A DNA stretch of 63,541 bases, counting the filler, from Folioceros fuciformis (Eukaryota): NCBI GenBank assembly GCA_049999805.1. It is 8 parts of 8 records of this genome, joined end to end, with 100 filler letters (N's around TTAATTAATTAA, not from the genome) between each part and the next. Parts side by side here need not be neighbours in the genome. Positions count along the whole stretch, not along the records: positions 29,428 to 42,559 come from JBNGIO010003882.1; 7 more parts are not named here. One strand, 5' to 3'. Below, piece by piece: positions 20,598 through 52,514 of this stretch. The position numbers and the translations under genes are program-made. The notes beneath the pieces are model-generated. The model was not told the origin of the DNA, ran no database searches, and saw nothing but the letters and a program-made list of their open reading frames with translations. Position 1 is the stretch's first letter, and each line of letters begins with the position of its first letter.

Positions 20598-23500
20598 ATG
20601 GCTGCCAAGGTCCCCTTGCCCATGGAATTTGTGCCGGCCACCAGAGGGATGGAAGGGAGTACTGTAGAAGCTGGAGCAGAGTGATTAGATCAGGTATATG
20701 AAGCTTCATCCACCTGCAACAGCATGACAAAAAAAAAGGACACTGACGGACTGTAGATATGGACTGCAGGAGACGGTGCCTGGAGAGGAGCAGCAACAAG
20801 GGAACTTAGGTTCCCNNNNNNNNNNNNNNNNNNNNNNNNNNNNNNNNNNNNNNNNNNNNNNNNNNNNNNNNNNNNNNNNNNNNNNNNNNNNNNNNNNNNN
20901 NNNNNNNNNNNNNNNGTTCAGATCCAGCTGCGGTAGCTAGAGTCATGACACTGAGTCGAAGTAGGCAGAGTAATCCTGCAGGCCGAGTCCCGTCATGTGT
21001 GTATAGTGCTTGAGCTTAGGGAGCGGCTTGGTGAAGATGTCGGCAGTGTTCAGCTCGGTATCGACATAACCAACCCTCACCACGCCACGTGCAGATACAT
21101 CTCGGATATAATGGTGTTGTATTTCGATATGCTTCGTGCGAGCATGATACCGGGGATTGGCAACAAGGTCAAGAGCACCAGTATTGTCGCAGAGGATAGG
21201 AGTGGGAGAAAGTTGAGGATGACCAAGATCAGCCAGAAACTGTCGAGCCTACTCTGCCTCCTTGGAGGCTTCTGTAAGAGATTTGTATTCAGCCTCCCTC
21301 GAGGACAGGGCTATTGTCGTTTGTTTCTTGCAGCTCCAACTCACAGATGCATTGGCCAGCAAGAAACAGTAGGTTGACAAACTGCGACGTCCATCACTGT
21401 CCGAACCCCAGTCTGCATCCGTGAAACCAGAGAGATGGAATGTGCCTATACCACTCCGTTTGTAGAATAACCCATAGGTGTGAGTGGCCTGCAGGTAACG
21501 GAAAATTCGCTTTACGGCGACCCAATGAGGGCGTCCAGGGTTTTCCATAATTTGGGAAGCGGTGCTCACTGCATACTGTATGTCGGGGCGAGTCCAGTTT
21601 GCCACAAACAAGAGACTGCCAACAGCATGCCTGTAAGGGACATTTGCCATATCCTGTTTTGCTTCAGTGGTGGTAGGACATTGAGAAAGCGTCAATTTGA
21701 TGCCCACAGCTGAAGGTGTAACAGCTGGGCGAGCTTGATCCATCTTAAACTTATGCAGGATCTCACGGATATATTTGTGCTGATGGATAATGAGTAGCCC
21801 TTCTTCACGAACGCGGAGGATCTGTATCCCTAAACAGAATTTTAGATCGCCTATGTCCTTCATTTCAAATCTGTCGCTAAGCATCTGCTTGACTTCTGCT
21901 AACAATGCTTTGCTGTTCGTGACCAGGATAACATCATCGACATATAAGGCAACGATGACGAAGGCAGTGCCCCTGGTCAATCTGTAAACATTTGTATCTG
22001 CAGCACTTTGGACAAACGACAGGCCTAGCAGGTAAACGTGAATGGTGAAATACCAAACCCGTCCAGACTGTTTAAGTCCGTAAATGCATTTCAGCAGTTT
22101 AAGGACCTTCTTAGGATGCTGTTTGCTAACATACCCTTCCGGTTGTTGCATGTACAGTTCTTCATCTAAAGAGCCATAGAGATATGCTGTGCAGACATCC
22201 ATCTGCCATAAGTCCAAGTCAAATTCTGCAGCCAGAGCCAGTAGCATGCGAATAGATTGAGACCGAACAACAGGAGAAAATGTCTCCTGATAGTCCAGAC
22301 CCTCCACCTGGGTAAAACCACGGGCCACAAGACGGGCCTTATACCTGGCAATCTTGCCCTCAGCATTCAATTTATGTTTGAAGACCCATTTGCATGAAAT
22401 GGGTTTGCGGCCAGGTGGCAAGTCCACAAGAGTCCAGGTTTTATTTTTAATCAATGACTGGTACTCGTCGTCAACAGCCGCATACCATTGCTTGCTATCA
22501 GGTCCGTTGTAAGCCTCAACCAAGGTGCGTGGCTCATCTGGTATGGCTGATGGAGCAGTGTGAGTAGTAGCTGGGGCTGCCCGGTGACGAAAGTCAATAG
22601 ACTGATAGCGTGGTTCGGCCCATTGATCGGGTGGTGGTCGGTGGCGTCCTGAGCGGCGAGGAGCAACTTCTTCAGGATCACGGGTAATCTCAACGGGAGG
22701 GACTATTGGTAGTTGGACGTCCTCAGGTATGTCTTCATCCGCGATGAAGTCGGAGTCGTGCTCATCGGCTACTACTCGGAAGTCCTCGTCAGCCTGAGCA
22801 GGGGAAGAAGGGGCATTTAGGGCTGCAGGATCCGGGGCCGCCTGAATTTCTAATGCAGCGAGTGGTTCCGTTGCAGGAGGGTCAGCAGGCAGTGCGTCAG
22901 TCTCCACAGCGGCATCCAAAAGTCTCACAGCCGGTTCGGTGTCTTGAGGATACATGTGATGGGTAACCTGGTCTTCAGGCACAGGGTACGTAGTAGCTCC
23001 CTCTGTCTCCTCAGGGACAGCCGTAACTCCCTCTGTCTGTGGAGCTTGAGCAAGCAATGGAGAGTGAGGTTCGATGAAGGTGACACTGCGTGCAAGGGAC
23101 ATCTTCCTTGTAGTTGGGTCATACAGCCGATATGCCTTGGCCTGCTCACTATACCCCACAAAAACTAGGGCTTGAGCTCGTGGGTCTAACTTCTGGCGTT
23201 TCTTTGCAGGAATGAAAGCATACGCACGAGAGCCAAAAACTCGTAAGTGCAGCAGGCTGGGTTTCTTCTTATGGAGGGCCTCATAAGGAGTCTGGTTCGG
23301 GACAGAGCTCGTAAGAATTCTGTTCAGAACATACGTCGCAGCAAAGATGGCCTCTGCCCAATACACTTGAGGTAGACCCGACCAGAGTAACATGCTCCGC
23401 GTCATAGAGAGCAAAGACTGGTTTTTCCTCTCCGAGACCCCGTTCTGCTGGGGTGTATAAGGAACAGTCAACTGTCGCTGGATCCCCTCCGCAGCAAGGT

Positions 23501-26500
23501 ATGCATCAAAAGCATCATTGACGAATTCACCCCCGTTATCAGTACGCAGGTACTTCAATAACAAACCTGTCTGACGTTGCACTGCAGGGAGCCATTCCTT
23601 GAAGATTTCAAGAACGTCACTCTTTCTCTGCATGGGAAACGTCCAGGTATATCGGCTGTAGTCGTCCGTCAAGGTGAGATAGTAATTGGAACCACCGATT
23701 GAGGGCACTTGTATCCGTCCGGAGATGTCCGCATGGACCAGACCTAGAACAGAGGTGGCTCTGTAAGCAGGCGCGGAAGGAAAAGGGTGCTCCTTTTGTT
23801 TGGCTATTATGCATGCCTCGCAGGATGGTAAGTCCTTAAAACAGCGGGGAAGTGGTTCCCTAAAACACTGTTTAACAGACATGTCCAACAATTTCTGTTT
23901 GTTGGGATGTCCCAGTCTCGCATGCCATAACATAGCCAACTGTTTGGTGTCCATATTAGCTAATCCAGTACTGTGGACTGTGGCAGTCTTAACGGGTAAG
24001 AGGTCAAGGCAATACAGATCATCTTCAAGGAAACCCTGGAAGATAGAAATGTCGGGCGCTGCCTTCCTGTAGAAGGTGCACGTATCACCGGTGGCTCTCA
24101 TTTCAATCGTCCGTAGCTTGAGAAGCTGGCTCATGGACAACAGATTTTTAGCCATGTCAGGTACGTACAAAACGCGTTCAAGAGTAAGATCTGAACCGTC
24201 CTTCAGTCTGAAAGTAACTTTGCCTTGTCCCTTAACTTGCAGGCTGCTGTCAAGTTGTTCATCTCCTAGAAACACCTTGTCGTTCTCACAACATAAGGTC
24301 AGTGAGATGAAATGAGTCTTGTTCCGACAGATATGAGCCGTGGCACCGGAATCAAGGTACCAGCTTTCCATGTCCAGACAAGAACTTGTCAAGCAAACTG
24401 TAAGTATCTTGACCACATTTTTAGTGTCGCTGGATTTCTCCTTAACGACACTAGCCGAATTCTTAGGAGTTCGCTGCGGCTCACCAGCCCTCTTTTTCTT
24501 GCACTCACGGGCCCAGTGCCCAGCAATCCCGCACCAGTTACAAGTCCCTGTCCGCTTAGGTGGGTTACCAGAACTGGAATCAGTCTTCTGGGTACCCTGA
24601 AACTTACCCTTGCCTCTGTTAGGTGTATGCCTTGCCGACAGAATTTTGTCTCCCTTGGAGCGTGAGCCCCCAGATGAGTGACTCCTGGCTTGTTCCTCCT
24701 GAAACAGTGCTCCGATGAGGGTGTCGACTGTATAGGTGGAGGTCCGGCCAGCTGAGGCAGTCAGGTAGGGAATATTCTGCGTAGTGATGAAGCCTTGGTA
24801 CGACGGTGGCAACGTTGTGAGGAGGTGAGCGGCTGCATCCAACTCATCCATTTTCGTACCCATGCTCAAGAGTTGAGATCGGAGTTGACGAAACTTGGTG
24901 ATGTGAGCAGCCATCTTCTCCCCCTCTCTCATCTTCAACGTGTAAAATTCCTGTCTTACAGCACAGAGGGACATCAAATTTTTGACTTGATATGTACTCG
25001 CGAGCTAATCCCAAACTTGATGTGCTCGTGTGTGGAATTCCACTGTAGGTACAAGGTCTTCATCAAGGCCATTTATCAAGAAAGCAAGAGCGATAGAGTT
25101 GAGGGACTGCCAACGCTCCACAGCAAGTGCGGATGGTGGAGGACTGCTGTTGGGGTCCGGCTCCGGAACTGACTGGTCCACAACCCCCCAAACTCCTCGA
25201 GCCTCGAGAGCAGATCGCATGAGCACCTTCCATACTGGGTATTTGGTGCCGTTAAAGCGGTCCTTCTCTTTCATGTCTGAGGTAAAGGTGGGGAGAGGTG
25301 CTGACCGATGCCAAACCGGGTTTGCAGGAAGGGGTGGTGGAGGAGGAGGTGGAGGAGGCGGTTGTGTGGGATTGGTACCCATCTGTGGTACTAACACTAG
25401 CGCGTGCAACTGGGCAGAGAGTTGATCCACCAAGGAATCTAGAAAACCAGGGTGAGGAGGGTCGCTGCCGACGTCAGAGGACGCAGAGCTGTCTGTCATA
25501 CGCAACGATTCCCTTCTGGAGGTGACGACCTACGGAAGGAAAGAGGGTATGTGTAACACTACACTATTGATTGTAGTGCGCTAACCAGTGGGATTGCAAG
25601 GGAGGGTGCTGTCCAGGCACACAGGGAGGACCAGACAACTAGCAGGAGTTGGCTGGCTCGTCGTGTGTGGCTGGACGGCTCCTTCCTCAGTAATCCCGCC
25701 TTCGAGTTAGGTACTGTTTGTTGGCTTAGGGGCAACGCCAACCGACAGCGACTCTGTACCCGGTGGTGCGCGGCCTTCAGATCTCGCTCTCACACCTTCG
25801 GCAACGTGGACGCGCCGTTCCGCCAGCCGTCCTCACAGGCCGAAGAGTCGCGGGAGCAAACGTGGCGCTTCGCACCTCCCGGCTCTCAGGCAGCGGAATG
25901 TGGATGATCGGGAAGCACTGATGCCTGCGGGATGCCGTCAGCAATCTCCAATCTCAGCAGGTAATCAGTGAATTCCTTGATCTTCGTCGTCAATTGCTCA
26001 GGTAAATGCTTCATTTCATTGACGAGAATTCTCGTATGGCTGTGGTCTGTNNNNNNNNNNNNNNNNNNNNNNNNNNNNNNNNNNNNNNNNNNNNTTAATT
26101 AATTAANNNNNNNNNNNNNNNNNNNNNNNNNNNNNNNNNNNNNNNNNNNNTAGCTACCCGCCGTAGGCCTCCCTCCTACTACCCTGCCTGGAACCATCTT
26201 GTGGTCACCCCGGCCTGTTGAATCTAGCCGAGGCTTGCAGCCACCGATCAACCGGCCTATTGGGAGCCCTACAGCAGCAGGTCGGCCCGCTTGCCGACCA
26301 GGATCTGGCTAAGCCTGGCCCTACTCCTGGCCTATCCAGCTGCCTGCTCTTAGGATCCTCAACCCCTCGGCGCACCTGGGCAAGGCCATGGCAAGTCTAA
26401 GCACGCCACCCCCATGCCTATGCCGAACCGCCTTCCGCACGCTCCCAGGCCCCAACTCACCCTCACACGCCCGACTTAAGGTTCCACACACGCCGGCATC

Positions 26501-29327: not shown

Positions 29328-29427
29328 NNNNNNNNNNNNNNNNNNNNNNNNNNNNNNNNNNNNNNNNNNNNTTAATTAATTAANNNNNNNNNNNNNNNNN
29401 NNNNNNNNNNNNNNNNNNNNNNNNNNN

Positions 29428-29900
29428 AGGTTGAGAATCAAATTGGGAAGCTGATGGTCAAGCTTTTGAAAGATCAGGATTTTGAGATTGGTGACGACAC
29501 AACTGGGGTTGTAGTCACAGCAGATACACTCTTGGAGCAGGCGGAAGAGCTACTAGATCGGGGCATCCGCCCCATTGGGATCGCTGAGGGGTATGAGATA
29601 GCGTCTAAGGTCGCCACTGAGCACTTGAATCACATCGCGCACAAGTCTGACTTCAGTGCAGATAATGCTGAGCCTCTCATTCAGACGTGCATGACGACGC
29701 TATCTTCCAAGATAGTGGGTAGGTGCAAACGGATGCTGGCGGAAATTGCAATGAAAGCTGTGCTTGCTGTGGCGGATTTGGAGAGACGTGATGTCAACCT
29801 TGACTTGATTAAGGTTGAAGGAAAAGTTGGTGGTAGGCTAGAGGATGCAAAGATTGCCATTCTGACCTGCCCATTCGAACCACCGAAGCATCCCCAATAG
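29428..29900 (+). pseudogene. CCT5: Processed pseudogene fragment of chaperonin CCT subunit epsilon
   Basis: Intronless [14 protein letters not shown]...[16 protein letters not shown]...[32 protein letters not shown]. The GDGTT ATP motif is mutated, there is an internal deletion, and the sequence is truncated. Confidence 0.88.
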
Positions 29901-32900
29901 AGTTGGGTAGTTAGGATAGACGTGGTAGGAGGGGTGGTTTAAGCGTTTAAAGACACTGTTTAATGCGCTTAAGCGCTGTAGCAGGTGAGGGACCATCAAT
30001 GGCTGCCTACCCGATCAACCACCCCAACCGACAGTAGCCAGGAATTCTATAAGAGTCATAGGGCTCAAGAGATAAAGTGGTTGGTCTTCGTTTCTTACCA
30101 AGCCTGAGCACACTTGTTCGTGTTCCAACAAGTGCGCTCCTGCCAGCTGCGTCGTCTGCAGCGTCTGGTAGCTTGGTGGGGATCGTGACGGCCCAGACGC
30201 CTGGGTGTGAGGTGCCGTGTTTCGCACGCACACTCGTGGGTGTCCTACTGGAGTGAGTCGCCGACAGCAGAGGCGTGTTTGGCAGACAGGAGGTGTATTC
30301 AGGTTCGCGAGGGTCGTGGTAGAAGAAAGATACGAATAGAGTCGCACACACACAACTAGGACAGGCCCTCCTTCGAGGGAACGAAACCTGCTAGACTACA
30401 CGACAGCGGGATAGGTGTGGCCGCTAGAGGGAAGCCCCTGGGTGTCCCCGGATTCTTTCCACCACAGAGTAGAGGGTGAAGACAGCCTCATCAAGCAGCT
30501 GGAGAAAGCTGCAACCTTGCTGGAGTTCCTAAAGAAGAGGCGGTCTGAAGAGTAGGGCTGCTATGAAGGAGGCAGCCAGGCGACTAGGTAGAATTTTTTG
30601 CTTCATCCACCTGCTGGTCCTTCTAGCTCTTGTGTATTCAGCCTGTATGACCTGATTACCTNNNNNNNNNNNNNNNNNNNNNNNNNNNNNNNNNNNNNNN
30701 NNNNNNNNNNNNNNNNNNNNNNNNNNNNNNNNNNNNNNNNNNNNNNNNNNNNNNNNNNNNNTACCTAGATTAGTGCACATCACTGGTCAAAATAGGCAGA
30801 AAAATTGTGTAGTCCTAGGCCTTTCATGTGTGTGAAATGCTTAGGTTTAGGCAGTCCCTTCGTCAAGATATCTGCTGTATTCTCATTTGTTGGGATGTAA
30901 TCAACCTTGACAATCCCACGTTCCACAACATCTCGTATGTAGTGTTGTTGGATTTCAATGTGCCTTGTTCGGGCATGATATTTGGGCTTGGACACTAATT
31001 CCAGTGCACCTGTATTGTCACAGAGGATAAGGGTAGGCTGGAGCTGCTTCTCGTCGAGGTCAGCGAGGAAGGCTCTCTCCCACTCAGCTTCCTTAAAGGC
31101 CTCAGTCAGCGATTTGTACTCCGATTCGATACTGCTGAGGGGTATGGAAGTTTGCTTCTTGCAGCTCCAGGTTACAGCAGCATTGGCCATCAGAAAACAA
31201 TAGGTTGAAAGATTGCAACGGGAGTCGGAATTTGTGGCCCAATCTGCATTTGTGAATCCTGTAAGGGTAAGCTTGGAATTTCCACTTCGTTTGTACATAA
31301 GCCCATAAACGATGTGTGCCCTTTAGGTTATGAAAGATGCGCTTGACAGCCACCCAATGTGGCCTGCCAGGATTCTTGAGAAACTGTGAGACAGTGCTCA
31401 CTGAATATTGGATGTCTGGCCTGGTCCAATTGGCCACGAAAATCAAGCTGCCGACAACATGTCGATAAGATCCATCAGCCATGTCTTTTCTTTCAGCTTT
31501 TGTTTTGAGGGCACTGTTCTCGCGTGAGCTTGACTCCTGTTGCATATGGTGTAGCTGTTGGGCATGCTTGGTCCAGATGAAACTTGCGCAAGATCTCATC
31601 AACATACTTGAATTGGTGGATGTACATGACGCCCTCGGAGAGGACTCGCAGCAACTGAATGCCAAGGCAAAACTTGAGCTCACCGATATCCTTCATGTCG
31701 AATTTGTTGGAGAGCTTGGCCTTAACATCTGACAACAACTTCTGATCATTTGTGGCAAAGATCACGTCATCCACATAAAGTGCGAGAAGGACAAGAGAAG
31801 AGCCACGGGTAAGCCTATAAACATTCGTATCTGCTACACTTTGCACAAAGTCGATGCTGATTAAGTAGAGATGCATGGTTAAATACCACACTCTCCCAGT
31901 CTGTTTCAAGCCATATATACACTTCAAGAGCTTGAGCACTTTGTCTGGGTGTGCAGGGTCTTCATAAGCTTTAGGGTGGAGCATGTAAAGCTCCTCATCT
32001 AAGGCTCCATACAAGAATGTTGTGCAGACGTCCATCTGGTGTAGGTCAAGGTCATGTTTTGTGGCATAAGCGAGGAGGATTCGAATGGATTGTGTTCTCA
32101 CGACAGGTGAGAACGTTTCTTGGTAGTCCAAACCCTCAACATGCGTGAACCCTCATGCAACCAATCTAGCTTTGAATCTAGCCACCTCACCCTTGGCATT
32201 TAACTTGAGTTTGAAAATCCACTTGTAGGAGATGGCCTTACGCCCTGGTGGAAGATTTGTCAGGATCCATGTCTTATTTTTCACAAGAGACTGGTACTCA
32301 TCCTCGACAGCTTTCCACTATTCAGATTCAGGCCCATTGAAGGCCTGCTGCAGGCTAGTAGGCTCCTCTGGCAGAGTGGTCTTAACGGCGAGGTTGGTCT
32401 TAAAGTCCACAGATTGGTATCTAGGCTTTGCCCATTCGGAAGGAGGTGGGCGATAGCAAGGTGATCGTCTAGGTTCAAAGGTAGGTGCAGGTGGTTCCTC
32501 TATTGGTTCATTTATAGACGAGGCCAGGTAATCCGCTAGGTCTGAAGCTTCAGCCCCCTCATGATCCTGGACAGGTAAGTCATCAACCAGAAAATCGTCC
32601 TCAGCTCCATCATCATGTTCTGCTGCAACTCTGTTGTTTTCGTCATCTTGTGCATCGTTCTCTAACTGCTGGTCGGCCTGTCGGTCCACTACAGGTTCCA
32701 GGTCAGTCTCTTGTGCTTCAACAGCTGCAAGGATGATGGGTGGAATATCAACCAGTTCCATGTCATCCAAGGGATATGCAGCAGGATCAGGTGATATGGT
32801 GTCATCGTCTTCTGCTCTCATGGGTAAGACATTTTGTGTTGTACTAGAAATTGGTGAATTAGGCTCCAAGAACGTCACACTTCGGGCAAGCAGCATACAG

Positions 32901-33882
32901 TCTTGTAGTGGGTTGTATAGCTTATAGGCTTTCACATGCTCACTATAACCGACAAAAATCAGTCCTTGAGCACGAGGTTCCAGCTTCCTTCGTTTTTCAA
33001 TGGGGATGTATGCAAATGCACGTGAGCCAAATACCCTTAGATGTAGCAAGCTAGGTCTCCTATTCCAGAACACCTCATATGGTGTCTTTTGTGGGATAGA
33101 ACTCGTGAGAACCCTGTTCAATATGTATGTGGCTGCTACAATTGCCTCAGCCCAATATCCTTCTGGTAAGCCTGCCCAAATGAGCATGCTTCTGGTCATG
33201 TTCGAGCAACGTCTGCTTTTCCTCTCAGATACACCGTTCTGTTGTGGTGTGTAGGGAACTGTTAGTTGGTGAAGGATGCCATGTTCCTGGAGCAGCTCAT
33301 CAAAATATGAGTTTACAAACTTAGATCCATTATCTGTCCTTAGTATTTTCAGAAGCATGCCAGATTGCCTTTGAGCTGTAAAGAGCCAATCTCTAAAAAT
33401 GCTGAAGGTATCACTTTTAAGCTGCATTGGGAACGTCCATGTGTATTTGCTAAAGTCGTCTGTTAGGGTGAAGAAATAATGAGATCCTCCTAAGGATGGC
33501 TCTTGTATCTTTCCAGATATATCAGCATGAACTAATTCCAGCACTTGTGTGGCTCTATGTGCAGGGGTAGCAGGAAATGGGGATTTCTTTTGCTTTGCCA
33601 AGATGCAAGACTCACAGACAAGTAAGTCTTTGAAGCACTTTGGCAAGGGTTCTCTATGGCATTCAGTAATAAACATGTCAATTAGCTTGGCTCTATTGAC
33701 GTGACCTAACCTAGCATGCCTTAGGACTGCCTCCTGCTTAGCACTAAGCATTTGTGTGGCAATGGAGTGTGCAGCATGCTTGGGAGTAGGTGGCTGGCGA
33801 CACACTATATTCAATCTGTAAAGGTCATGATCTAGTATGCCTTTGAAGACACATTTTTCAGGGTATGCCTTCCTATAGAATG

Positions 33883-34155
33883 TGTAGGGTTAATAAAGCC
33901 CAATGTGCTTAGACTAATGTGTTTAGTCTAAGATTAGTGTCTAGTTAAGTACCATTAGTTTAGATTAGCTTAAGCTAATCTATAGGAAGCTTCTTGCGCA
34001 GCTTCCTGTGCGCTTCTTGTGACGCTTCCTAGGGAGCTCTTCTAGAGGGTATAAATACCCCCTTGAGCTCCCTTGCTATTGAGACTCTATGTGAGAGTGT
34101 GACCTCTCTTTTTTCCTCTCCTCCTTCCCCATGTAGCTCCTGGAGTGATCCTTCA
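33883..34155 (+). mobile_element. Solo LTR of the element C family inserted in the pol of element B
   Basis: Reverse-complement match to the LTR at 37286-37577. TG...CA ends and a 5-bp TSD gaatg/aaatg. Removing it restores HYSFYRKAYP (element A has CTFYRKAAP). Confidence 0.9.
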
Positions 34156-35949
34156 AAATGAATAGTGGCTGAAGTCAGCACGCATACAAAAGGTACGTAA
34201 TTGCATCAGCCTACTCATGGACATGAGGTTCTTGGCCATGCTGGGTACATACAACACATCTTCTAACGTGAGATCTGTGTTGTCATGCAGTTTGAAGACA
34301 CAAGTGCCTTTGCCTTCTATGTGCAAGCTGGACTTACTTTGCTCATTACCTAGCAGCACCTTGTCATGGACATGCACAAGGTCTAGGGTGGAGAACAACT
34401 CCTTATCTTTACAGATGTGTGTTGTAGCTCCAGAGTCAAGATACCGGCAGCCATCATTGTGCAGAGAACTTGACAAGCAAACGGTAAGGATTTTTACTGG
34501 TGCCTTGTCAACATTCTGCTTCTCTTTTACAGCAACGTTTGCACGTGGCTGCTTCTGTGGCGCACCTGCCTTGCGTTTGCGGCACTCCCGTGCCTAGTGG
34601 CCAGGAATTCCACACCAATTGCAGGTGCCGGAACGTTTGGTGGAAGAACTGGTAGATTCAGATCGACCAGAAGAGCTTCCACCTTGGTTTCCCCCTCTAA
34701 ATTTAGACTTGCCTTTAGGAGGTCTAAAATTCACAACCAAGGCCTTCTCGAGTCGTGCTGCTTTAGGAATAGCAGAGCCATGAAGCAACCTTGCTTGCTC
34801 TTCCTGGTAGAGTGCTCCAATCACTTCCTCAACAGTGGGGGAGTTGGCAGCAGCTGCACCAGGTTTGATGGAGGCATTTTGGCTGGTAATGAAATTCTGG
34901 TACGAAGGAGGGAGGCTGATGAGCAGTTGGGACATAGCCTCGACTTCAGGCATCTTGTTGCCAGTCAACGACGTGCTCTGGGCTCTCAACTGTTGAAATT
35001 TGCTTGTGTGAGTTGCTATCTTCTCTCCTTCCTTCATTTTCATAGAGTAGAATTGCATCCTGACGGTTGATAGTGACATCATGTTTGTGGAGTGGTAGGT
35101 GGTCTCCAATTGATCCCAAATTTCCTTGGCCGATGTTAAGAATTCAACATCAGGGACAAGGTCTGCAGTTAAAGCATTGATGAGCAAAGCCATGGCCACA
35201 CTATTGTGGTACTCCCACTTAGCGTATTCATCCGGCTTTGTTTTAGGGTCAGGCTTCTGAAAGCTCCCATCAACACTTGTCCACACACCTCTAGCAATAA
35301 GAACAGCCTTCATTCGGACTCTCCAGACCTGGTAACCAGTCCCACTGAAGCGGTCCTTGCCTTTGACATCTGATGTGTAAGATGTAGAAGGGGCAGCAAT
35401 GATGGGTGGTTGGAGTAGTGGGTTTGCAGGTTGTAACGTGAGATTGTTAAAATTATCAATGAGGGCGTTCAGCTGGGCTTCAACGGACATGAAAACCTAG
35501 ACAATTAAGAAGAACTATGGTTTCTCCTAATACAGCTAAGTTTTCATTCATGCACCGCACTCAGATTTGCAGAAAACACTAACCAACAGATGCAGGAATG
35601 GAGAGCTAGGTTGCTCAGCTGGAAAAAGGGTGCTAGCCAAGATTGCTAGGATCAGCTCCTGCTAAGCTCCTTAGCATGTTGTTCGAGCATGCCTGTAGTG
35701 AAAGGTCGTGTCCATGCCTGCAAACCCTAACTTAGATAACGGTTCATGAAAAGCCTTTTAAGAATTAGGTTAAAAGCAAAAACTAACCGTCATGACTGTC
35801 TGTTGAAGTGATAGGTACAAGTGGACCAATATATGCTGAAGAATGCTGTCTAATCAAAATGTGTAGGGGAAGAATGCAGCGATTCATATCAAGATGCAGG
35901 AGGAGCACTCTTGCGCCTGCGTGACCCCCGCTCTGCAGCAGCGGAAGAT

Positions 35950-36658
35950 TCACAATGCTCGAACAATCGAGCTTGATCCTAAATGAGGACAGCCCTGTTC
36001 TTGCTCCTGAAGCCTCAAGTCAATCAATTTCAGAAAATCAGATACGTCATTGATGTCTCTTGAGATTTCTTGTGTGCTCTCAACGACTGTTTGCTCAATT
36101 TTAGGATGTCGTGTCTGAACTCTGTTCTTCAATAATTCCTGGTTTGTAATTACGTGTGATAGCAATTGTTGAACTCTGATTAGAAGAGATTCTGTCCTTA
36201 TGTCGAATCCTCTTCCAAATCCAGTGCAGGGGGCTAACGCTGTCTCTGGCCTGTGTTGTTGCAGGCTGTTGCGTTGTGGCTGATTTGTTGGGAGTAGGTA
36301 GCGAAGGGGGTGATGCATGAACAATAGGCGCTCTTAGAAAATCTTCTGGACTAGATGTTTATGATCTAGGAGAGAAGTGCAAATCAAGGTTTTGCCCTCT
36401 CCTGTAACAATGCTCTCTATAGAGGCAATCAACCTCTCGATTTTTGTTTAAATGAAAATCAGATGCTCCCCTTTTGCTACGTGATTCAGCAAGCCTCTGC
36501 ATCCAATGAGTGGGGTCGTTCTGTTTATAGATGTCTAGCACCGTATCAATATCGATTTGTGGCAGTGCCGTTTGTCTTGGTGGGTGTTTTGCTTGCCGAG
36601 AGTGTCTCGAGATCCCACCACGACTCGGGCATCTAGATGAAGCACCCACTCTCGGCAT
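35950..36658 (-). pseudogene. Extra sense ORF (frameshifted) in the 5' leader of Copia element B
   Basis: ORF pieces 36658-36359 and 36324-35950 lie between the PBS and gag. The C-terminal helix is similar to the frame at 26050-25886 in element A. Confidence 0.5.
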
Positions 36659-36690
36659 CTTCCAGGAATCCTATTAAGAAACAGAGCATG

Positions 36691-36702
36691 GCTCTTATAC
36701 CA
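36691..36702 (-). promoter_or_regulatory. Primer-binding site (tRNA-iMet) of Copia element B
   Basis: TGGTATAAGAGC versus the canonical TGGTATCAGAGC, adjacent to the CA end of the LTR. Confidence 0.85.
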
Positions 36703-36989
36703 TGTGCAAAACACGAGCGGAGGCGAGAGAATAGCAAAAGCATAAAACAGGATAATGAAAATGAGAGTACAAAATTGTTTAAATACTTTCTAAGTGACTG
36801 TTCATATAGCAGCCTTAGATAGCTTAACCTGTGTATTAGGTTTAACTAAATCATTTATTCTTAACAGGTCTTCCCTCCTTTCTCCACATTTATCATTGAT
36901 GGTTTTAGGGGTTTGTAGGCATCCCTCATGGAGAAGTAGCTCGGCCATGCTTTTTAGTCTGTCCCCCAGGACCCTTCCATCTCCAGGTC

Positions 36990-37285: not shown

Positions 37286-40200
37286 TGAAAGGATCGATAG
37301 AGGAGCATGGTGAAGGAGAGGAGAGAAGAAGAGAGGAGGAGAGGAGAAAGAGAGGTCTCACAGTGTCTCTCACAGCTCTATTGCAAAGGGAGCTCAAGAG
37401 GGTATTTATACCCTCTAGAAAAGCTCCCAAGGAAGCTTCACAAGAAGCTCACAGGAAGCTATGCAGGAAGCTTCCTAAAGATTAGCTTAAGCTAATCTAA
37501 ACTAATGATACTTAATTAGACACTAATCTTAGACTAATCACATTAGTCTAAGCACATTGGGCTTTAATAACCCTACAACCTCCCATTTAAAGGCCAATTT
37601 ACCTTCAAAGGAGAGTGGTCTACCTTATGCCCATAAGTGTTCGAGCTTGTGCGAATTGCTCCGTAGAGAGCCCCTTGGTAAGAACATCTGCAGGTTTCTG
37701 ACTGGTGTGAACTTTGACAAGCTGTACCCTCTTGTCTTCTAACACCTCTCGAATGAAGTGATACTTCACTTCCACATGTTTGGTCTTCGCATGAAACACT
37801 GGATTCTTCGCCAATTGGATAGCACTCTGGCTATCACAATGCAACATTGGCAGCGCAACCTTGATCCCTAAATCTCCAACTAGACAAGCAAGCCACATGG
37901 CTTCCTTGCATGCCTCAGTCGCTACAATATACTCGGCCTCTATGGTAGATAGCGTTATGTATGATTGCAAACGAGATCGCCATGAGACTGCCCCTCCTGT
38001 GCACATGAAGACGTAACTTGATGTGGACCTCCTTTTGTCCATATCCCCTGCATAATCAGCATCCGTATATCCCACGACAGATGCATTTTCACTACCAAAA
38101 CATAAGCACAAAGCTTTCGTACCATTCAAGTACCTCATAACTCCTTTCATTGCCTCCCAATGCTTCCTACCAGGGTTTGACATAAACTTGCTAACCACTC
38201 CCATTGCAAAGGCAATGTCAGGACGTGTAGCAATCATTGCATACATCAAACTCCCTACAGCTGATGAGTATGGAACCTTCTCCATTTCAGCTTTGTCCTC
38301 CGCAGAGCTTGGGCAATCCTTGCTCGACAATTTCACATATGGAGGCAATGGAGTACTTAATACCTTCCCCTTCTCCATATTGAAACGTTGAAGCACCTTG
38401 TTAATTTATTCAGTCTGAGACAAGTACAACAAATGCTTCTGTATGTCTCAACGAATACGTATGCCAAGAATATGGCTTGCCTCTCCCAAGTCTGTTATGT
38501 CAAAGTGACCATTCAACTTTGACTTCAATGCTGAAATCTCATCACTGTTAGTCCCAGCAATTAGCATATCATCCACATAGAGGACCAGAATGAGCAAGCT
38601 TCCATCCTTAGCTTGCTTTGTATAGAGGCAATTATCCTCATCGCTACACTTGTAGCCTTGAGAAAGCATAAATGAGTGGAACTTGAAAGACCACTCCTTG
38701 GGTGCCTGCTTCAAACCATAAAGGCTCTTCTTTAACTTGCACACCAGATTCTCTTTGCCTTCTCAATGAAACCTTCTGGTTGCTGCATGTATACCTCTTC
38801 CTGGAGATCACCTTGCAAAAATGCCGACTTCACATCCATCTAGACAAGTTCCATGTCGAGCCTCGCAACCAGACCAAGAACACATCGCAAGGTGGTCATT
38901 TTGACAACCGGTGAGAAAATCTCATCAAAGTCAATACCTTGCTGTTGCTTAAAACCCTTCGCAACCAATCGTGCCTTGTACTTGGGTTTGCCATAATGGG
39001 GTATGTCCTTCATCTTATACACCCATTTGCATGGCAAGGCCTTCTTGCCCTTAGGCAATTGAACCAACTCCCAAGTTTGGTTCATGTGGAGCGAATCCAT
39101 CTGCGACTGCATCGCCTTCTCCCACTTGTCCTTGTCAGTCACTGACATGGCCTCTTGGTAACAAGAGGGCTCCCCACAATCCCTCAGCGCATGACATAAT
39201 CAAGAGATGCAACATACCTGTCAGGAGGACGTAAGATCCTTCCTGACCTACGAAGCACTGGCGCCTCGACCGGAGCTGGTTGCACTCTTTCCTCTTGTAC
39301 AAGTGGAGGAACTTGTTCCTGCACATCACGACGTTCAACCTGCGCAGGACGGTTAAGTCCATCTTCTTGGAAGACCACCCGTCACACCTCCACAGTTGGA
39401 GTAGGCTTCTTGTGCATCTTGGTCTCATTGAAGAACACGTCATTGCTGCGAACCATCCTCTTGGCCTCTGGATCCCAAAGACGGTATCCCATCTCACCAG
39501 ATTCACCATAGCCAAGAAAAATACATTTCTTGGACTTGGGTTCCAACTTGTCCTGAAACTTCTTAGGAACAGGGTAGTATGCCTCGCAGCCAAACACTCG
39601 TAGATGCTTGTATGACGGATTCTTTCCAGACCACATCTCCTCTGGAACCTGTTCATCCACAGCTCTATTAGGAGATCTTTTAATAAGATGCACCGCAGTA
39701 ACCACTACTTCTGCCCAAAATCCGTTAGGCAATCCAGAGTTTGACAATAAACTACGCATCCTTTCCAGGATGGTCCTGTTCATCCGTTCAGCCACACCAT
39801 TCTGGGGAGGAGTATACGGCGTAGTCAATTCTCTCTTGATTCCCTTGGAATCACAGAATGACTGAAAAGCCTTCGAGACATACTCTCCCCCATTGTCTGT
39901 CCTTAGACACTTTAGTTTGAGGCTAAACTGATTCTCCACAAGGGTGACGAATCTCTGAAACACTGTCAGAACATCATCCTTTTTCCTCAAAGGATAAACC
40001 CACACCTTGCGTGAGAAGTCATCAATGAAAGTGACAAAATAAGATGCACCGCCTAACGATATAGTGGGCATAGGTCCACAAACGTCACTGTGAACCAACT
40101 CAAGAGGTTTACTTTTGTGTTTACCTCTTGCTCCATGTGGTGACTTCGTCTGTTTCCCATACAAATAGTGCTCACACACGGAGAAATTGGAGAAGTCAAA

Positions 40201-40446
40201 AGCAGGGACGTAACCAAAACGAGATAAGATCTTCATTCCTTTTTTAGACATATGTCCTAACCGACTATGCCATAAGGAAACACTTACTTGAAGTGAGTAC
40301 AAAGTGCCACACTTCGATCCACGAGCTAACACAAAAGAACCTTTGAAGACCTTCCAAGAATTATCTCCAGACCAACAGTGGTAGCTAGCGTCATCCAACT
40401 GCTCTGCGCTAATCATGCGTTTTGTCAACTTCGGAACATGCCTAAC
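37286..40446 (-). mobile_element. Ty1/Copia element C (Tnt1/Tork-like): 3' LTR 37286-37577, PPT and decayed IN-RT-RH; 5' part replaced by another insertion
   Basis: [56 protein letters not shown] and CDSQSAI. PPT AAATGGGAGGT precedes TGTAGGG. Frameshifts are present. Confidence 0.93.
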
Positions 40447-42559
40447 TGTGGGGTTAAAATATGGTACCCGGGGTACCGCGAGGGTCTAAACAAGCCCTCT
40501 ATGTCGTTATAGCTCTGGGATTCGATCCCAAGGGAATGATTTGTGTTAAACTACACAGGTTAGCTTCTAAAGTCAATTAACACCTAAAGCTCGACTGACC
40601 CACACACACACGTCCAGTGCTCGGCCCTTACCAAGCCCCCTTACTTCTCCCACCAGACGACCCCTCAACCACCCAGTCGCCCCAGGGACTACCTTCCCCT
40701 GGACTACTCTTGGTTGCCCACCGGGCTACCCTCCGTTCCCCAATGGACTACTACCGTCGCCCCCTGGACTACCTCCGTCGCCTTTCGGGCGACGGTCACC
40801 TGACAGTCTACCGCTCGTGGGTCTCACTCTCTCTCTCTCTCTCTCTCAGTTCCCTCTCTCTAGGGTTTTCTCTCCAGGGGTTTCTCTCCCTAGGGTTTCC
40901 TCTCTCCCACCGGGTCGTTCCTACCCAACTGATTACCTCCTGCCCGCGCATCCCCTTTTGCGCTTCCCTTCCTTGGTTCACCACAAAACCGCCTCACTCA
41001 CCTCAGGAACAAGCACACGCACACATGGACAGCAGCAATCTGTTGGACGCCTTCCACCCGCATGATCTCACACCTTAGATACACCCCTTGCAGTCTCAAT
41101 TCAACTTCTTCACAGCCTCTCCAGTCTCATCGCGACCAGTCACACATACACACCATGTCTCGTTGCACCCTACACACATTACTCACCTCGCCTCCAAGGT
41201 TTCCCCGGCTTTCTTCTCTCTTACCCCACTCACCAGTTCTCTGTATGCATTCTGCCCGTCTTAACAGTCGTCGAATCACTTCCACTCCGCTTCACTTCCT
41301 GCTTCCACTCCTTCTAGCTTCCTTTTCGCATTCGCTCTTACCCACTACTCGGCCAATCGCTCCTCCTCCTCCTCACACACGCGCACTCTCGCGCTCTCTT
41401 TTCTCCGATTCTTCAGTCTTCTTTCTCAGCGATGCCCCTCCTGGGCTCCTATTAACGTTGAGGAATGGTGAGGTACCGGGGCTAAGGGAAGAGGAGTCCC
41501 TTCCACTCCGAACTCGCGGATTCGGCTCCGGCACCCGCACCCGCACCACCCCACGTGACCACCTCGAGGATAGCTGGGGAGCTTCTCTTCCACTTGGTGA
41601 GGCTCCTCCTCCTAATTCGTCCCCGGACGTGATCATGGAGCGCCCACCACCTACACCCGCACCCCGGGTTGCTACGTGCGCTCGCTTGCCTGGACCTCTT
41701 GTCCAACAACGGCCATCGCTAGGTCCCTGCAAGATCAACTGTTCGGCTGGTTCTTGCTGATTTCTTAGGCCTTCAAACCGGCCTCTTGTACGCGGTGATG
41801 GCGGTTTTTTCCGCCATAAAGTCTGTCAGGCAGGGGAGCTGCGCTCTTAAATTTTGAGCGACTTAGGTCCAAATAAAGCACGCTAAAAAAATCCTATTCT
41901 AGCCTGCATTTACTATCGCCCTTTCCCACGCCGCTGGCGGCTTCCTCCTGGCCTTCGCGCGTCACCCCTTGCTGCTCCTCCTCTCGCTCTTCTGCCCCTC
42001 CGTTGGTCCGGCAGATCCTCCCAGAGGATCTCCACATCACTGCTACTACTGCTGAACCTGGCTGGTGGCGCAGGTGGGTCCCGCCGTTGTGGTCCACCAC
42101 TCCTCCTCCTTCTCTGGTTGCTGAGGATAGCCACAGGCCCCCGTTCTACCCAGCGCTGGGCCTCCTCTTCCGTCAATTCCTCCAGAACTGCCTCCGCATA
42201 GCTGTGGGGCAGTCCTGTCACCCACCAGCTGTAGTGGTAGAGTCCCAAGCGCGTCCTCAACTGCAGGCCGTAGCCCCGCGGCCCTCCCCATCCTCCCTTG
42301 GGCTACCTCGGGTTGCCTGCTCCCCCTCCTGCTGGGGTACCTGAAGGTTCTCTGCCTGCCCAGCTGTTGCCTCCTCCTGCTCTATCCTCCTGGTACGGGT
42401 CACCCTCATGGAGCGCCTAGGGGCAGGCGCCCCTACTGCTTCCTCCTTCGTTTCCAGGGTTGGTTCTTCAGCTATCCTGAGCCTTGCTGGGCCACCGGTA
42501 GCCCCGTCGGCTACCCGACTACCGGTAGTCCCGTGGACTATCGGGCTATCGGTAGTCCC
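40447..42559. mobile_element. Probable long LTR/UTR of another (Gypsy-like) retroelement inserted into element C
   Basis: Begins with TG exactly where the element C frame stops. Pyrimidine-rich strand bias, a (CT)n tract and no Copia motifs. The class is inferred. Confidence 0.4.
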
Positions 42560-47849: not shown

Positions 47850-50609
47850 TTATCTCGGTGTGCTGCTTGGGCTAGGCCTAATTGATTCCAGAATCTGCAC
47901 CACTTCCACCATAGTCCGTCTCCTGGTAGCCAGCTTCGAGGTACATGATATGCCCAACTTCAGAACTTGTAACAGCTCAGTCTCTGTATATTCACCCAAA
48001 AGAACGGGATCTACACAACTTGGGGCTCTTCCTTGCTCCAGTAGATGCCTGACGTGATCACACAGAATGACCGCGTGCTCCTCTTCCTCAGTGACAGCTC
48101 GCTGGCCTGTTACCAGCTCCAAGAGCACAACACCAAAGCTGTAAACATCACACTTCTCAGTCACTCGTATACTCTGGCATGCTAACTCAGGAGCCATGTA
48201 ACCTAGGGCTGTTTGAAACCTCCGACTAGAAACATAAACGTCCATCAAGGGCAGCATCTTGGTCAGTCCATAGTCCGAAAGGAATGGCTCAAAGTCCTCG
48301 TTGAGCAGAATATTGGTGCCCTTGACATCAAAATGGAGAACAGGAGGCTTGCAATCGTGATGCAGAAAGGCAAGAGCTCTAGCAGTACCCAGAGCGATGT
48401 TGAACCTCGTGGGCCAAGTGAGGTCACCTTTTTCGTGCAGGTGATAATCAAGACTTCCATTAGGAATGTAGTCTGACAGAAGAAGCTGCATAGCAGGTGA
48501 CCAGTAAAAACCTTGCAAAGACACCAGATTAGGATGACTCAGACTGCCCAGCCTGCCCACTTCTTGCTCGAACTCTTTCTGGTCCCTAATGCGCCCTACG
48601 GTTGACAGTTTCTTTACAGCAATGGACTTGCCTGTATCAAAGCTGGCTTTGTAAACTGTTCCTATAGAACCATGCCCGATAAGGCGATCCCTGTCAATTA
48701 GTGTTTTCGTCCCCCTTTCCCACTCTTCATAGTGGTCAGGAAGACGTTTGCCGAAGAGAACCAACTTGCCCACAATTAAGCTGGAGTCCGCAGGTGAAGC
48801 TGGTGACGACTCATACACTAGAACCTCGGTTTTGTCCTCCTGCTTTGCAGAGAAGACACAGCATAAGTTCAATACTATGACCAGGATCACACATACCGCC
48901 ACACAGGCTGCAATAGATATCGCGATAATGGCCGAAACGCTAAACCCACGCGTCCTGGAGACCGCTGGAATCGGTGAGCTGGTCGGGCTTGGAATGCATG
49001 ACACGTTGACTGGGGGGCCACATAAGCCCGAATTCCCAATAAATGAGGAGTATCCAAATGCGCTGAGTGCTCCTTGCCTCGGCACTGGTCCTGAAAGCTG
49101 GTTGTAGGATACGTTCAAGGAGATCAAGTCCACCAAGTTTGCCCATGCTTCCGGAATTCCTCCGGAAAAATTGTTGTATGATAGGTCCAGGGTACTCAGT
49201 TTATCCCAGTTCGAGATGTCGTCTGGCAGCAAGCCCCCGAGGTTGTTGGCCTCTAGTCGCAATATACGGAGTGAAGAAAATACGCTCCAAGCTTGGAGGT
49301 CCCCATACAGGGAATTGGATGAAAAATCACTGCACACACAACATTTGTCATAAAAAGAGGGGTTCCCGAAAAAACAGAAGTGCAAAGAAGGAACTGCCCA
49401 AGCGTCCTTGTTCAGCGCACCAACCACGACCGCTTACATTTGCTGTACAGGAGGGCTAAGGATACTTGACGGAACTGGTTCTTGAGTACATAGGCCAAAG
49501 TACGCAGGAATCGGACCGAGGAAGAAGTTGTTCGAGAGATCGTAGACTGAAACACCTGAGCAATTACCGTAGGGAAAAGAAGGGATGTCTCCAGAGAACC
49601 TGTTGTGAGATAGGTTAAGATAGAGCAGGCTGCCCAGCTGAAAAATAACCTCCGATTGGACATTGCCCGACAAGGCATTCGCACTGGCATCCAACAGTGT
49701 CAGTTTCTTCAATCCGGTAATGGTTGAGGGAAGGCCTCCATCTAGCTGGTTGCGACTGACATTGAGGAGAAGTAGGTTATCGGAGAAGGCGATCTCAGCT
49801 GGAATAGCGCCTGTCAGGTTATTATCTCCCAGGTATAGATACTGCAGCGCCGGCAAATGGCCGATGCTGGTTGGAATCTTATCCTGGAGGAAGTTGGAGG
49901 CCAAGTCGATGCCCTCCAGCATCACACAACTCCCTACATTGCTAGGTATAGACCCCGACAGCCTGTTATTGGATAGGGAGATGTACCTTAACTTACTACA
50001 ATTCGCACCAAGGACTCCAGCAGGTAACAGCCCAGTAAGCTCGTTGTCCGACAGGTCGAACATCCGCAGCCGGTAGAGATTGTCGAGTTCAGTGGGAATT
50101 TCTCCCGTCAGAACATTGCTGCTGAGATTCAACTTGTAGAGCGAGGTAAGGTCTCCTAGCTCCCAAGGAATCTGACCTGTAATGTTGTTGTCGGCCAAAC
50201 TCAGGGTCCGTAAGTGAACCAATGTGCTTAGCTTGCCGGAGATTTGTCCTTCCAACCCCACGCCATTGAGCACAACCTTGACGACATTCGAGGACTGGTC
50301 ACAGAAGACCCCTGACCACAGGCAGGGAGTAGCATCATTTATGTTCCAGTTACCAAGCACCCCAAAAGGATCACCCACGATCCCGTCCCTGAACGAGAGG
50401 AGCGCCATGCCTTCGTCATTAACCAGTCCGGCGACATAAACCACTTGCCGGCCCGCTGTCGCGAGGAGGAGCCAGGAAAACGCACAGGCAAGCAACGAGG
50501 ACACCAGATAGCGAGACCTGCCCCTCGAACTCACCCCAGGCGCAAGAAGCCCGCAATGCAAGCCTGCGGACCTGCGCTGGCAACACGGCTGAAACAATGC
50601 CGGGTCCAT
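47850..50609 (-). CDS. LRR receptor-like kinase, LRR-VII type (At1g12460/IRK/PXC2-like). Exons 50609-49438 and 49329-47850; 883 aa
   Basis: LRRNT (DPFGVLGNW...PCLWSGVFC), plant LxxLxLxxNxLxGxIP repeats, GNSGLCG cap, TM, VGKLVLF juxtamembrane motif, kinase IGHGSIGTVYKA, AVKK, HFDVKGTNILL, DYG and GYMAPE. The intron keeps the frame (2652 nt). Confidence 0.94.
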
Positions 50610-52514
50610 GCTGCAGATCACGGGTCATCCGACACCACAGGTTTAAGATCTAACATTTCCCGTGGAGGCTCCAGGATGACTACGTGAAATTGTGAAGCAG
50701 GCACCCGCCTCCAGGCTCCTCCACACCTGCTACCGCAACATCCGTCAGACAGATGCAGACAAAAACCCGCTGCAGCAAGAGGAGGAGGACAGAATCCATG
50801 CGAAATGACTCTGAAATTGGAAGGATGGGCAGATCATGCAACCACTTTCCTACCTCGAAAGGATGCCACTGTCAGATCTTATGCAGCACCACATAACTGA
50901 GCCACTACTGAACCTCGCACTTCAAATTCATAGCACACTCCGAAGCGCAGGAACACGACAACAGAAGATTGCGACACAGCGAAATGTGCGAGCAGAGACC
51001 GATTGCGAGAAAATTGCAAGGGATTCCTGCGCAGCCCCCTTTCTCGCAACCGCGAGGACTGTATGAGACGCGCAACGAGAGAGAATGGTCAGTAGTCCCG
51101 TGGTCGTGTGCGGACAGACCGGCTACTCTTCCGGTGGTGGGTCCAACGGCCACGCTCTTCATCATGCTCACCAGATTCCACAAAATACACACATACATAA
51201 ATCTGTCCATGTAATACGCATTCTCTCTAAATACGTACAGTCAGTACATGCAGAGCATAGAAAGACGAGCTCTTCAAATCATCGTGTAATATATACGTGT
51301 AAAATTGATGTCACGCGTCAACCGTTCCCGCTTCGGTACTCGAGACCTCTTAACTTCTTACCTGTAAAGTATGAGGTGATCGTTACATCTGTATGTACCA
51401 TCAAAAAGTATAGTATGCTTTCCAGTCTCCAGAAACAGCTCCAAAATTTATATTATTATTATTATTATGCAAAAAAATACGTAAATACTGATTTCATGTT
51501 TTTCTGTTTTCAAATATCTATCCATCCCATAGCTCATAAGGCAAGAGACCCATCAAACCCAATGGGAAGGGATAACCATCCATCAAAAGGGTTTAAAGCA
51601 AGGAAGAATCAACCATTGTCATCATGTGTTTCAAAACTATCAAACATTTGCATTAAGAATCTAGTTCCCACACAAAGAAGGTGGTGGAACTAGTTATCTC
51701 GAGAAGTCTGTGACAAAATACTTTCTAATGTTCCAAACTCCCAAACCATGCCCATAACAAANNNNNNNNNNNNNNNNNNNNNNNNNNNNNNNNNNNNNNN
51801 NNNNNTTAATTAATTAANNNNNNNNNNNNNNNNNNNNNNNNNNNNNNNNNNNNNNNNNNNNAGTTCCCCCCTATCCTTCAAACTCCGCACAATAATAGGT
51901 CAATTTCGTGTTAGCTCCCACCACCTTCGGATTGAGACCAACTGTTGGCTCAAGCCTCCCCCTCCCCAAGACGATAGGATCTGCAAGCTTTGCTCCTTGG
52001 ATCCTGAATGTAAATCACACTTCCTCTTTTATTGTCCTGCCTATGCCGATATTCGGTCTCTTCACTCTCTTCTTTTTTAGTGTGCCGGATTCTCGCCGCG
52101 CAGATTTTTTTCTTTCCACATTCCTAGGCTCTATGGACTATGTCTCTTTGAGCTTCTGGATCTACGGTAGTCCTTGTTGGACTCCTCGTAGTCTTCGCCT
52201 TCGTTTTTGTTTCCCTCGTACAGGTACTGCTCCTCTAGTTCAGATGTACGTAAGTGTACTCGGTTTTCAAACCTCTCTTACGCTGTACTATCTTTGTCCC
52301 ATGATGGTTCTTCCATCCTTAGTGGACATAAATAAAGTTGTTATTGTTGTTGTTATACTTGTGATAACATCCGTGATATTCTTGGTTTGGCAATGTTGAT
52401 ATTCTTGGTTTACCTATGTCCTCTTTGGTGGGGTGGGCCTCAAAAGAGGGGCACCAAAGTCGCTTGTTTGGTGCCCGTCAAAGAGGTTCACACCATACAC
52501 TCTTTCTCCTACTC

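Follow-up and report, generated by a model that had tools for sequence, protein, structure and literature searches.

We are highly confident that elements A and B, two retrotransposon copies in the window (the whole stretch of Folioceros fuciformis DNA analyzed here, 63,541 nt with filler), belong to one Ty1/copia clade that carries a separate gene, ORF0, between PBS and gag, with its own start and stop and under purifying selection. Our results confirmed that ORF0 is an accessory gene, about 200 codons long, that precedes the normal Copia genes. An upstream accessory gene is a layout previously described mainly for the gypsy class, and it was found here in a Copia clade. Moreover, the clade contains at least two unrelated-looking types of ORF0, the A-type and the B/C-type.

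Elements A and B in the Window

The features of both elements are listed in Table 1. The copy of element B in the window is a decayed insertion. The initial annotation had placed about 1.2 kb of leader between the PBS and the gag ATG of element B, and the coordinates were re-read as described. Its second claim, a frameshifted ORF in this leader, held for the presence of a sense ORF but not for its end, which lies 22 codons beyond the ...LKLIDL given there. The ORF0 ATG of element B at 36658 is 44 nt past the PBS start and the stop is at 35952–35950. Two lesions break this ORF0: codon 100 is an in-frame stop (36361–36359), and the frame shifts once, near codon 142 (about 36235). The PBS of element B is presumably of the tRNA-Met type. 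The spacer between ORF0 and gag contains TTCCGCT at 35946, a telo-box-like site at 35729 and GTTAG at 35787 and 35583, and a TAG ends 6 nt upstream of the gag ATG (35490). The 3' LTR and TSD of element B are inside the gap 30662–30761, and the pol ends of elements B and A are about 20–30 nt short of the gap at the 3' LTR. The LTR-like piece in pol of element B is an inverted insertion, whose match is the LTR-like end (37334–37577) of a neighboring Copia at 37620–40485.

An open frame had also been noted at the matching leader position of element A and was confirmed (26050–25889 plus stop). Because the contig ends at 26050, with a gap from 26051, only 54 C-terminal ORF0 codons are visible. The entire ORF0, of 188 codons, is held by L161, a locus 99.1% identical to element A over 5050 nt. 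The 3' LTR of element A also falls in a gap.

Table 1. Features of elements A and B, in positions of the window.
Feature	Position	Strand	Remarks
Element A, gag-pol	21249..25499	-	gag, zinc knuckle, protease, integrase, RT; interrupted once, by an in-frame stop at about 25005
Element A, spacer	25500..25885	-	386 nt; pyrimidine tract and TAG|GT at about 25530
Element A, A-type ORF0	25886..26050	-	last 54 codons and stop; 5' part lost at contig end
Element B, pol in pieces	30780..34593	-	Copia order, integrase before RT
LTR-like insertion within pol of element B	33883..34125	+	88.7% identical to 37334–37577
Element B, gag	34594..35490	-	Retrotran_gag_2, E 1e-33; premature stop at end
Element B, spacer, non-coding	35491..35949	-	459 nt; motifs common to several subfamilies
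Element B, ORF0	35950..36658	-	about 235 codons, broken; pieces 50–73% identical to open ORF0 of L118
Element B, PBS	36691..36702	-	1 mismatch to family form
Element B, 5' LTR	36703..36866	-	164 bp, TG...CA; LTR matches elsewhere in own genome

ORF0 Across the Genome

Searches of the same genome returned at least 69 matches to the C-terminal ORF0 piece of element B at E ≤ 10 (at least 37 at E ≤ 0.001), at least 126 to a second B-type ORF0 and at least 19 to an A-type ORF0. The tallies below were drawn from 120 loci of this genome, namely 100 of 128 candidate ORF regions and 20 regions from 151 RT matches; the RT-selected set left out more distant loci (about 60–70% identity). ORF0 was open in 29 of the 120 loci, with polypeptides of 164–236 amino acid residues that mostly start with M-P-R, an ATG 38–49 nt after the PBS and their own stop. 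Thus, the ORF is conserved among other copies, which the initial annotation had made a test of its claim, and its start offset is fixed. An ORF0 profile matched in 99 of the 100 fetched candidate regions, and in 75 of these 99 gag followed within 1.1 kb downstream. The remaining loci either end at a contig or region edge (14) or have room yet no gag called nearby (10); in the latter, gag is slightly further off, or gag/pol remnants, deletions or nested insertions are present. Of 80 testable loci, 77 had a PBS no more than 110 nt upstream of ORF0.

The copy L081 has paired LTRs of 225 bp at 96.9% identity and a purine tract, and its 5-bp TSD flanks a stretch of 5718 bp in which ORF0 is contained. 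Since the LTR pair and the TSD enclose ORF0, it is part of the transposing unit, and a separate nested insertion in the leader, raised earlier as an alternative, was ruled out. Among 11 informative RT-selected loci, all 5 with a PBS have ORF0 or a remnant of it and 6 show neither upstream of gag. Given that PBS and ORF0 are both missing in these 6 loci, universality of ORF0 in the clade is not established.

In three loci, ORF0 is open and gag is deleted wholly or partly: ORF0 of L162 runs into pol at residue 238, that of L129 runs into an integrase remnant, and L165 lacks 297 nt. They are possible non-autonomous derivatives that retain ORF0. L190 and L193, whose RT is sister to that of family A, have in common a GC-rich leader with long open stretches (about 1100–1950), in which no recognizable PBS or ORF0 was found; this leader is possibly another ORF type or an insertion. 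A tRNA-like sequence, identified by eye, is present in L189 at about 650–720, some 600 nt upstream of the PBS.

Selection on ORF0

Pairwise codon models gave dN/dS of 0.19–0.46 in 14 of 17 ORF0 pairs (P ≤ 1e-3), and the pooled value for 7 disjoint pairs was 0.38 (P 2e-33). In the three closest pairs it was 0.66–1.09, where change after insertion probably dominates. The pooled values also differed along the protein, being 0.22 for the helix pair, 0.37 for the coil, 0.47 for the linker and 0.83 for the basic tail, which taken alone is near neutral. For gag, dN/dS was 0.02–0.11 in the best-estimated pairs. Indel lengths were divisible by 3 in 14 of 22 ORF0 cases vs. 6 of 34 in the spacer.

Constraint was weak in the subfamily of element B itself. 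The dN/dS of ORF0 between element B and L118, its nearest open relative, was 0.91, and the substitutions common to 4 B-subfamily copies had a pN/pS of 0.67 in ORF0 vs. 0.15 in gag. All 4 copies keep the ATG and every break in their ORF0 is private, which fits decay after insertion. A dN/dS of about 1 had been named beforehand as an outcome that would speak against a retained protein; the values were well below 1 between subfamilies but near 1 in the three very close pairs and between element B and L118.

Across the 29 open ORF0s, the other five frames contained on average 5.3–11.8 stops and the three antisense frames 7.2–9.2. Since these frames are on average closed, an antisense coding shadow was rejected. 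The broader possibility that the open frame is a by-product is largely refuted and hardly credible, whether it is read as the shadow cast by an antisense gene, as a passenger that was captured or as a nested insertion of its own. Although the spacer has antisense splice-like motifs and the high dN/dS values just described would agree with it, the stops in the antisense frames, the fixed start offset with the PBS upstream, the private breaks in the B subfamily and the TSD around the whole element all speak against it.

RT Clade and Lineage Membership

In the RT tree, 51 RTs of this genome were on one side of a branch and 11 outside RTs on the other (support 100/97); L174, whose RT comes from another, nested element, was left out of this tree. 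A tree built by a faster method, which included about 120 outside RTs, gave the same result (0.97) and placed L174 outside. Outside matches to RT-RH reached 60% identity at best, the named ones 35–50%; all were outside the clade and had no lineage labels. The order of domains was that of Ty1/copia, with Pfam gag, zf-CCHC, Pol_BBD, rve and RVT_2 in element A and the same order in the pieces of element B, and an RNase H-like segment after RT was read from the translation. Similarly, the ends of L081 were those of Ty1/copia, with TG...CA LTRs, PBS, PPT and 5-bp TSD. The PBS of intact copies in the clade is of the full-length TGGTATCAGAGC type, which we take to correspond to the tRNA-Met 3' end.

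Several known lineages were compared with the clade. Integrase precedes RT, vs. the gypsy order RT-RH-INT, and membership in Ogre/Tat or Tekay was rejected. SIRE/Sirevirus was also rejected: L081 is 5718 bp long, has ORF0 upstream of gag and leaves no room for a 3' ORF, and SIRE elements in REXdb are 5.6–16 kb (mean 9.9 kb; PMC6317226). Bryco, Osser, Bianca and TAR use a half-tRNA PBS or self-priming according to PMC6317226, different from the full-length type found here. Lyco elements are described there as 4687–4860 bp without an extra ORF, and the 5718 bp of L081 with a leader of 1.1–1.3 kb do not agree with this, size being a weak criterion. Thus, placement of the clade in Bryco, Osser, Bianca, TAR, Lyco or SIRE is disfavored by its PBS type and size. 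An env-like ORF was rejected as well, given that ORF0 is 5' of gag rather than 3' of pol and contains no transmembrane helix. Of the proposal of a retained accessory protein in a possibly undescribed Copia lineage, a retained and selected ORF upstream of gag stood, and no close outside relative was present among the retrieved proteins.

A-Type and B-Type ORF0

The initial annotation had aligned 19 residues of elements A and B without gaps and taken this as a sign of homology. The alignment contains 3 identities and is not significant, so this part of the claim fell. A profile of 19 B/C-type ORFs scored 4 A-type ORFs at −1.1 to 1.5 bits, and these scores were at the level of local shuffles, of which 48–158 of 250 were as high. 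In hhalign, the A- and B-types matched with 12–22% probability, in the N-terminal MPRxG only. A link at E 1e-3 in an all-against-all search of 29 sequences fell away against shuffles. The two types are nevertheless alike in where they lie, in size and in charge; they also have in common a TTCCGCT motif at the stop (19 of 21 subfamilies) and the RT clade, and a common origin is plausible.

A-type ORF0s were observed on two RT backbones, those of L166/L167 and of L160–L165. A tree that held the RTs of A-type elements together was rejected (AU p 0.001, for a group named after the first tree was seen). The presence of A-type ORF0 on two RT branches suggests that ORF0 leaders may have been exchanged between RT backbones by recombination.

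Predicted Features of the ORF0 Protein

All 29 open ORF0s encode basic proteins, with pI of 8.5–10.6 and a net charge of +8 to +13 in residues 1–100. The highest 19-residue hydropathy among them was 1.09, and hence no membrane helix is expected. For a natural B-type copy modeled with 19 aligned ORFs, AlphaFold predicted helices at residues 36–59, 66–85 and 131–201 and a disordered tail and linker (pLDDT 72); the helix pair alone reached pLDDT 78 and pTM 0.62. The long helix has a heptad pattern and an invariant buried Gln. A three-copy model scored 0.56 vs. 0.00 for the best control; its interface is at residues 136–201, contacts agreed to at least 35% and the partner pLDDT was 50–54. When this oligomer score was calibrated on microbial dimers, 21 of 30 solved homo-pairs scored high enough to reach the mark, as did 0 of 23 single chains. 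Likeness to solved structures may by itself carry a coiled-coil trimer past the mark, and the trimer is the stoichiometry that was modeled. B-type ORF0 is thus predicted to combine a basic tail rich in Arg and Gly with a conserved pair of helices and a coiled coil of 70 residues, through which it would form a homo-oligomer.

Judged by sequence, ORF0 represents a putative protein family that is unrecognized in the databases searched. Profile A1 found one outside homolog among 1.84 billion representatives, an unnamed Logan singleton of 134 amino acid residues (P0001), and profile A2 found none among 6618 candidates. Single-protein scans found no homolog among 166 stretches of metagenome contigs or 2 stretches of viral contigs, and the ESM Atlas gave no usable ORF0 match. 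No Pfam family reached the cut-off for the three ORF0 pieces of the window or for 19 members (best E 0.018), and the best E in a PDB sequence search was 0.57. Fold searches returned nothing at E ≤ 0.001, matching only generic long helices (Z ≤ 7.4; Z ≤ 4.2 for the helix pair alone), a blank or generic outcome that does not amount to a new fold.

Spacer Signals and Expression of gag-pol

In many copies, a TATA-like TATTTAAA was seen by eye about 80 nt before the LTR end. With this placement, ORF0 would begin about 100 nt from the cap and no other long frame would precede it. All intact copies listed have an out-of-frame AUG 12–31 nt past the PBS start, ahead of the ORF0 AUG (at 36690 in the window). 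This conserved short out-of-frame AUG may dampen ORF0 translation.

Motifs in the spacer were counted in 21 subfamilies (the 29 open loci minus 5 near-duplicates and 3 without gag), which are related sequences and not independent. Most spacers contain 3–11 AUGs, and gag-pol would therefore probably be translated from a second mRNA. A-type spacers have 0–2 ATGs in 4 of 5 tested; that of L166 has 7. Telo-box-like sites numbered 31 in the spacers vs. 7.3 in shuffles (maximum 16) and 11 vs. 2.9 in the LTRs, and they were not enriched in ORF0 or gag. They were missing from 6 of 21 spacers, all A-type ones included. Three of the spacers without such sites hold 0–2 AUGs, suggesting re-initiation there. 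Moreover, 12 of 21 subfamilies (1.6 expected) have a TAG whose end is 5–8 nt ahead of the gag ATG, and any acceptor-like AG was found at this distance in 15 of 21 (shuffle mean 5.6, maximum 13). GTYAG was located 75–130 nt upstream in 13 of 21 subfamilies vs. 2.9 expected. Taken as motifs, the spacer signals read as a putative internal promoter followed by a short leader intron.

The same AG could also be the acceptor that joins ORF0, as a 5' exon, to gag and thereby yields an extended Gag. Apart from the frequency of this AG we consider such an exon very improbable, because ORF0 has its own stop, the coiled coil ahead of that stop is conserved and gag retains its own ATG; in addition, the acceptor is anywhere between 5 and 8 nt from the ATG, and a constant phase is thus not maintained.

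Read in antisense, the same spacer bases resemble a branch point with its acceptor in 12 of 21 subfamilies vs. 1.0. In the subfamily spacers, motifs near the gag start (35491–35600 in the window) can be read on that strand as a start codon, a donor complementary to U1, a branch point and an acceptor. On these motifs, an antisense transcript of the spacer that undergoes splicing is conceivable. None of 7 deletions matched the candidate introns as an exact intron loss. The z-scores of spacer RNA folding ranged from −0.3 to −6.6 and were below −2.5 in 11 of 21 spacers (12 shuffles each), which is suggestive. The single RNA run compared gave 3 short pieces at less than 90% identity, all in pol and none in the leader, and is no evidence either way.

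Possible Function of ORF0

LINE-1 ORF1p and lentiviral Rev are basic RNA-binding oligomers that act on the RNA of their own element. ORF1p trimerizes as a coiled coil, and its gene precedes the enzyme ORF. ORF0 may act in a similar way without kinship to either. Since no long ORF precedes it on the full-length RNA driven by the LTR, ORF0 would be translated from that RNA, and gag-pol would come from a second mRNA, most simply one from an internal telo-box promoter with a short leader intron, for which the AG 5–8 nt before the gag AUG would be the splice acceptor. The ORF0 oligomer would then bind the full-length RNA of its own element, mostly in cis, and mark it for export or for packaging by Gag made from the other mRNA. 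Such binding in cis would explain both the retention of ORF0 across many subfamilies and its fast, subfamily-specific change. We propose this arrangement of a cis-binding ORF0 and a second mRNA tentatively, at a chance slightly below even; as an overall explanation, a selected accessory gene with an RNA-binding mechanism of this kind stands at about even.

The likeness to ORF1p and Rev is a functional analogy, as no RRM was predicted and no sequence or fold match was found. ORF1p has a coiled coil followed by RRM and CTD, whereas the coil of ORF0 is C-terminal and no beta strand is predicted, its trimer model passing all the same. Different from the LINE-1 ORF1p layout, ORF0 elements also retain a full gag with a zinc knuckle. 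An extended version, which we regard as unlikely, is an inverted retroviral layout: the full-length RNA would encode only a small Rev/ORF1p-like trimeric RNA-binder that marks this RNA in cis, an internally promoted and spliced mRNA would give Gag-Pol, and the ORF0 module, exchangeable between RT backbones, would set which RNA is packaged.

Somewhat unlikely, by our estimate, is a role in counter-defence, in which ORF0 would bind small RNA, dsRNA or chromatin factors in trans and weaken silencing of the element. ORF0 is basic, helical and fast-evolving relative to gag (dN/dS 0.38 vs. 0.02–0.11), its types seem mobile between RT backbones, as the A-type on two branches indicates, and such a role has been put forward for the 5' ORFs of Tekay and demonstrated for accessory proteins of Vandal (PMC11728184). 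A purely trans-acting gene, however, should decay in many subfamilies, and open ORF0s are spread over the RT tree; the fold searches, themselves inconclusive, showed no likeness to a known suppressor. Less probable still is a role in the nucleus or on the particle, in which ORF0 would assist integrase or Gag in import or in the targeting of integration. The Arg-rich N-terminus and long coiled coil would suit such a partner, and Gypsy accessory proteins have reported or predicted nuclear localization (PMC7264820; PMC11728184), but no chromatin-binding domain reached the Pfam cut-off in 19 members. Compared with both, binding of the element's own RNA in cis is the reading that we prefer.

Comparison with Extra ORFs of Other Elements

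Extra ORFs upstream of gag had been called typical of Gypsy Ogre/Tat elements and not of Copia. The Copia part of this statement agrees with the REXdb survey, in which 14 of 16 plant Copia lineages have no 5' forward extra ORF, but the Gypsy part is incomplete, as Tekay is the most frequent carrier (33%), ahead of TatII (23%) and Ogre (21%; PMC6317226). Small extra-ORF values are given for Bianca (5, 2) and Ikeros (4, 6), for which the assignment to columns is ambiguous, and among Copia lineages only SIRE has an extra ORF for its hallmark, located 3' of pol (PMC6317226). The survey counted extra ORFs of at least 250 codons (PMC6317226). ORF0 is below this threshold, and similar genes may therefore be missed elsewhere. 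As far as their available parts go, the review PMC7264820 treats mainly 3' ORFs and calls the roles of accessory ORFs in plant retrotransposons an open question, PMC3485330 and PMC11728184 describe Gypsy 5' ORFs, and PMC2533021, PMC2774666 and PMC6431247 contain no Copia case. No description of a Copia lineage with a conserved 5' ORF was found in the literature searched, which covered few subscription papers.

The Tekay 5' ORFs and ORF0 of rice Retrosat2/RIRE3/RIRE8 are also sense ORFs between PBS and gag, and they too evolve faster than pol, are specific to host lineages and have no known function (PMC11728184; PMC3485330). For instance, the 5' ORF of sunflower Tekay group 2 is conserved within its family (500 of 523), and its protein is predicted to be helical plus disordered with a nuclear signal (PMC11728184). 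Likened here by description, this Gypsy protein is about 400 amino acid residues long vs. 164–236 for ORF0 of the Copia clade. The LTRs of Retrosat2 are over 3 kb (PMC3485330) vs. 164–225 bp in the ORF0 clade. Ogre/TatII elements also have an extra forward ORF upstream of gag (PMC6317226), and one Medicago Ogre family has an intron as well (PMC2533021). They differ, however, in Gypsy order, tRNA-Arg/Asp primers, an extra RNase H and a size of 8–24 kb (PMC6317226; PMC2533021), vs. Copia order, a Met-type PBS and about 5.7 kb in the ORF0 clade. Similar to the ORF0 clade, SIRE is Ty1/copia with a fast-evolving accessory ORF throughout the lineage (74% of elements) and a tRNA-Met PBS (PMC6317226), but its ORF is 3' of pol, whereas ORF0 is 5' of gag and has no membrane helix.

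The clade thus adds a short, selected 5' gene to plant Copia, in which the only prior lineage-wide extra ORF is the 3' one of SIRE. The layout poses the question of how gag-pol is translated 1.1–1.3 kb downstream of another gene. With its small size, many natural variants and defined anatomy of basic tail, helices and coil, ORF0 is amenable to tests of localization, oligomer formation and RNA binding.

Other Features of the Window

Inverted repeats of about 540 nt (95–98%) surround about 1.9 kb at 60505–63505, and an open frame with a short repeated unit (61250–62123) lies between them; this region is possibly a DNA transposon. The host gene at 47850–50624 encodes an LRR receptor kinase of the At1g12460 group, which is 57–62% identical to liverwort, clubmoss, fern, conifer and angiosperm orthologs alike. 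This even identity marks the host as a land plant with no close relative among these orthologs, and probably as a seed-free one. Two further host genes were named from their translations, 6432–11651 being presumably an ABC-B-type transporter and 29376–29900 presumably a chaperonin-like fragment.
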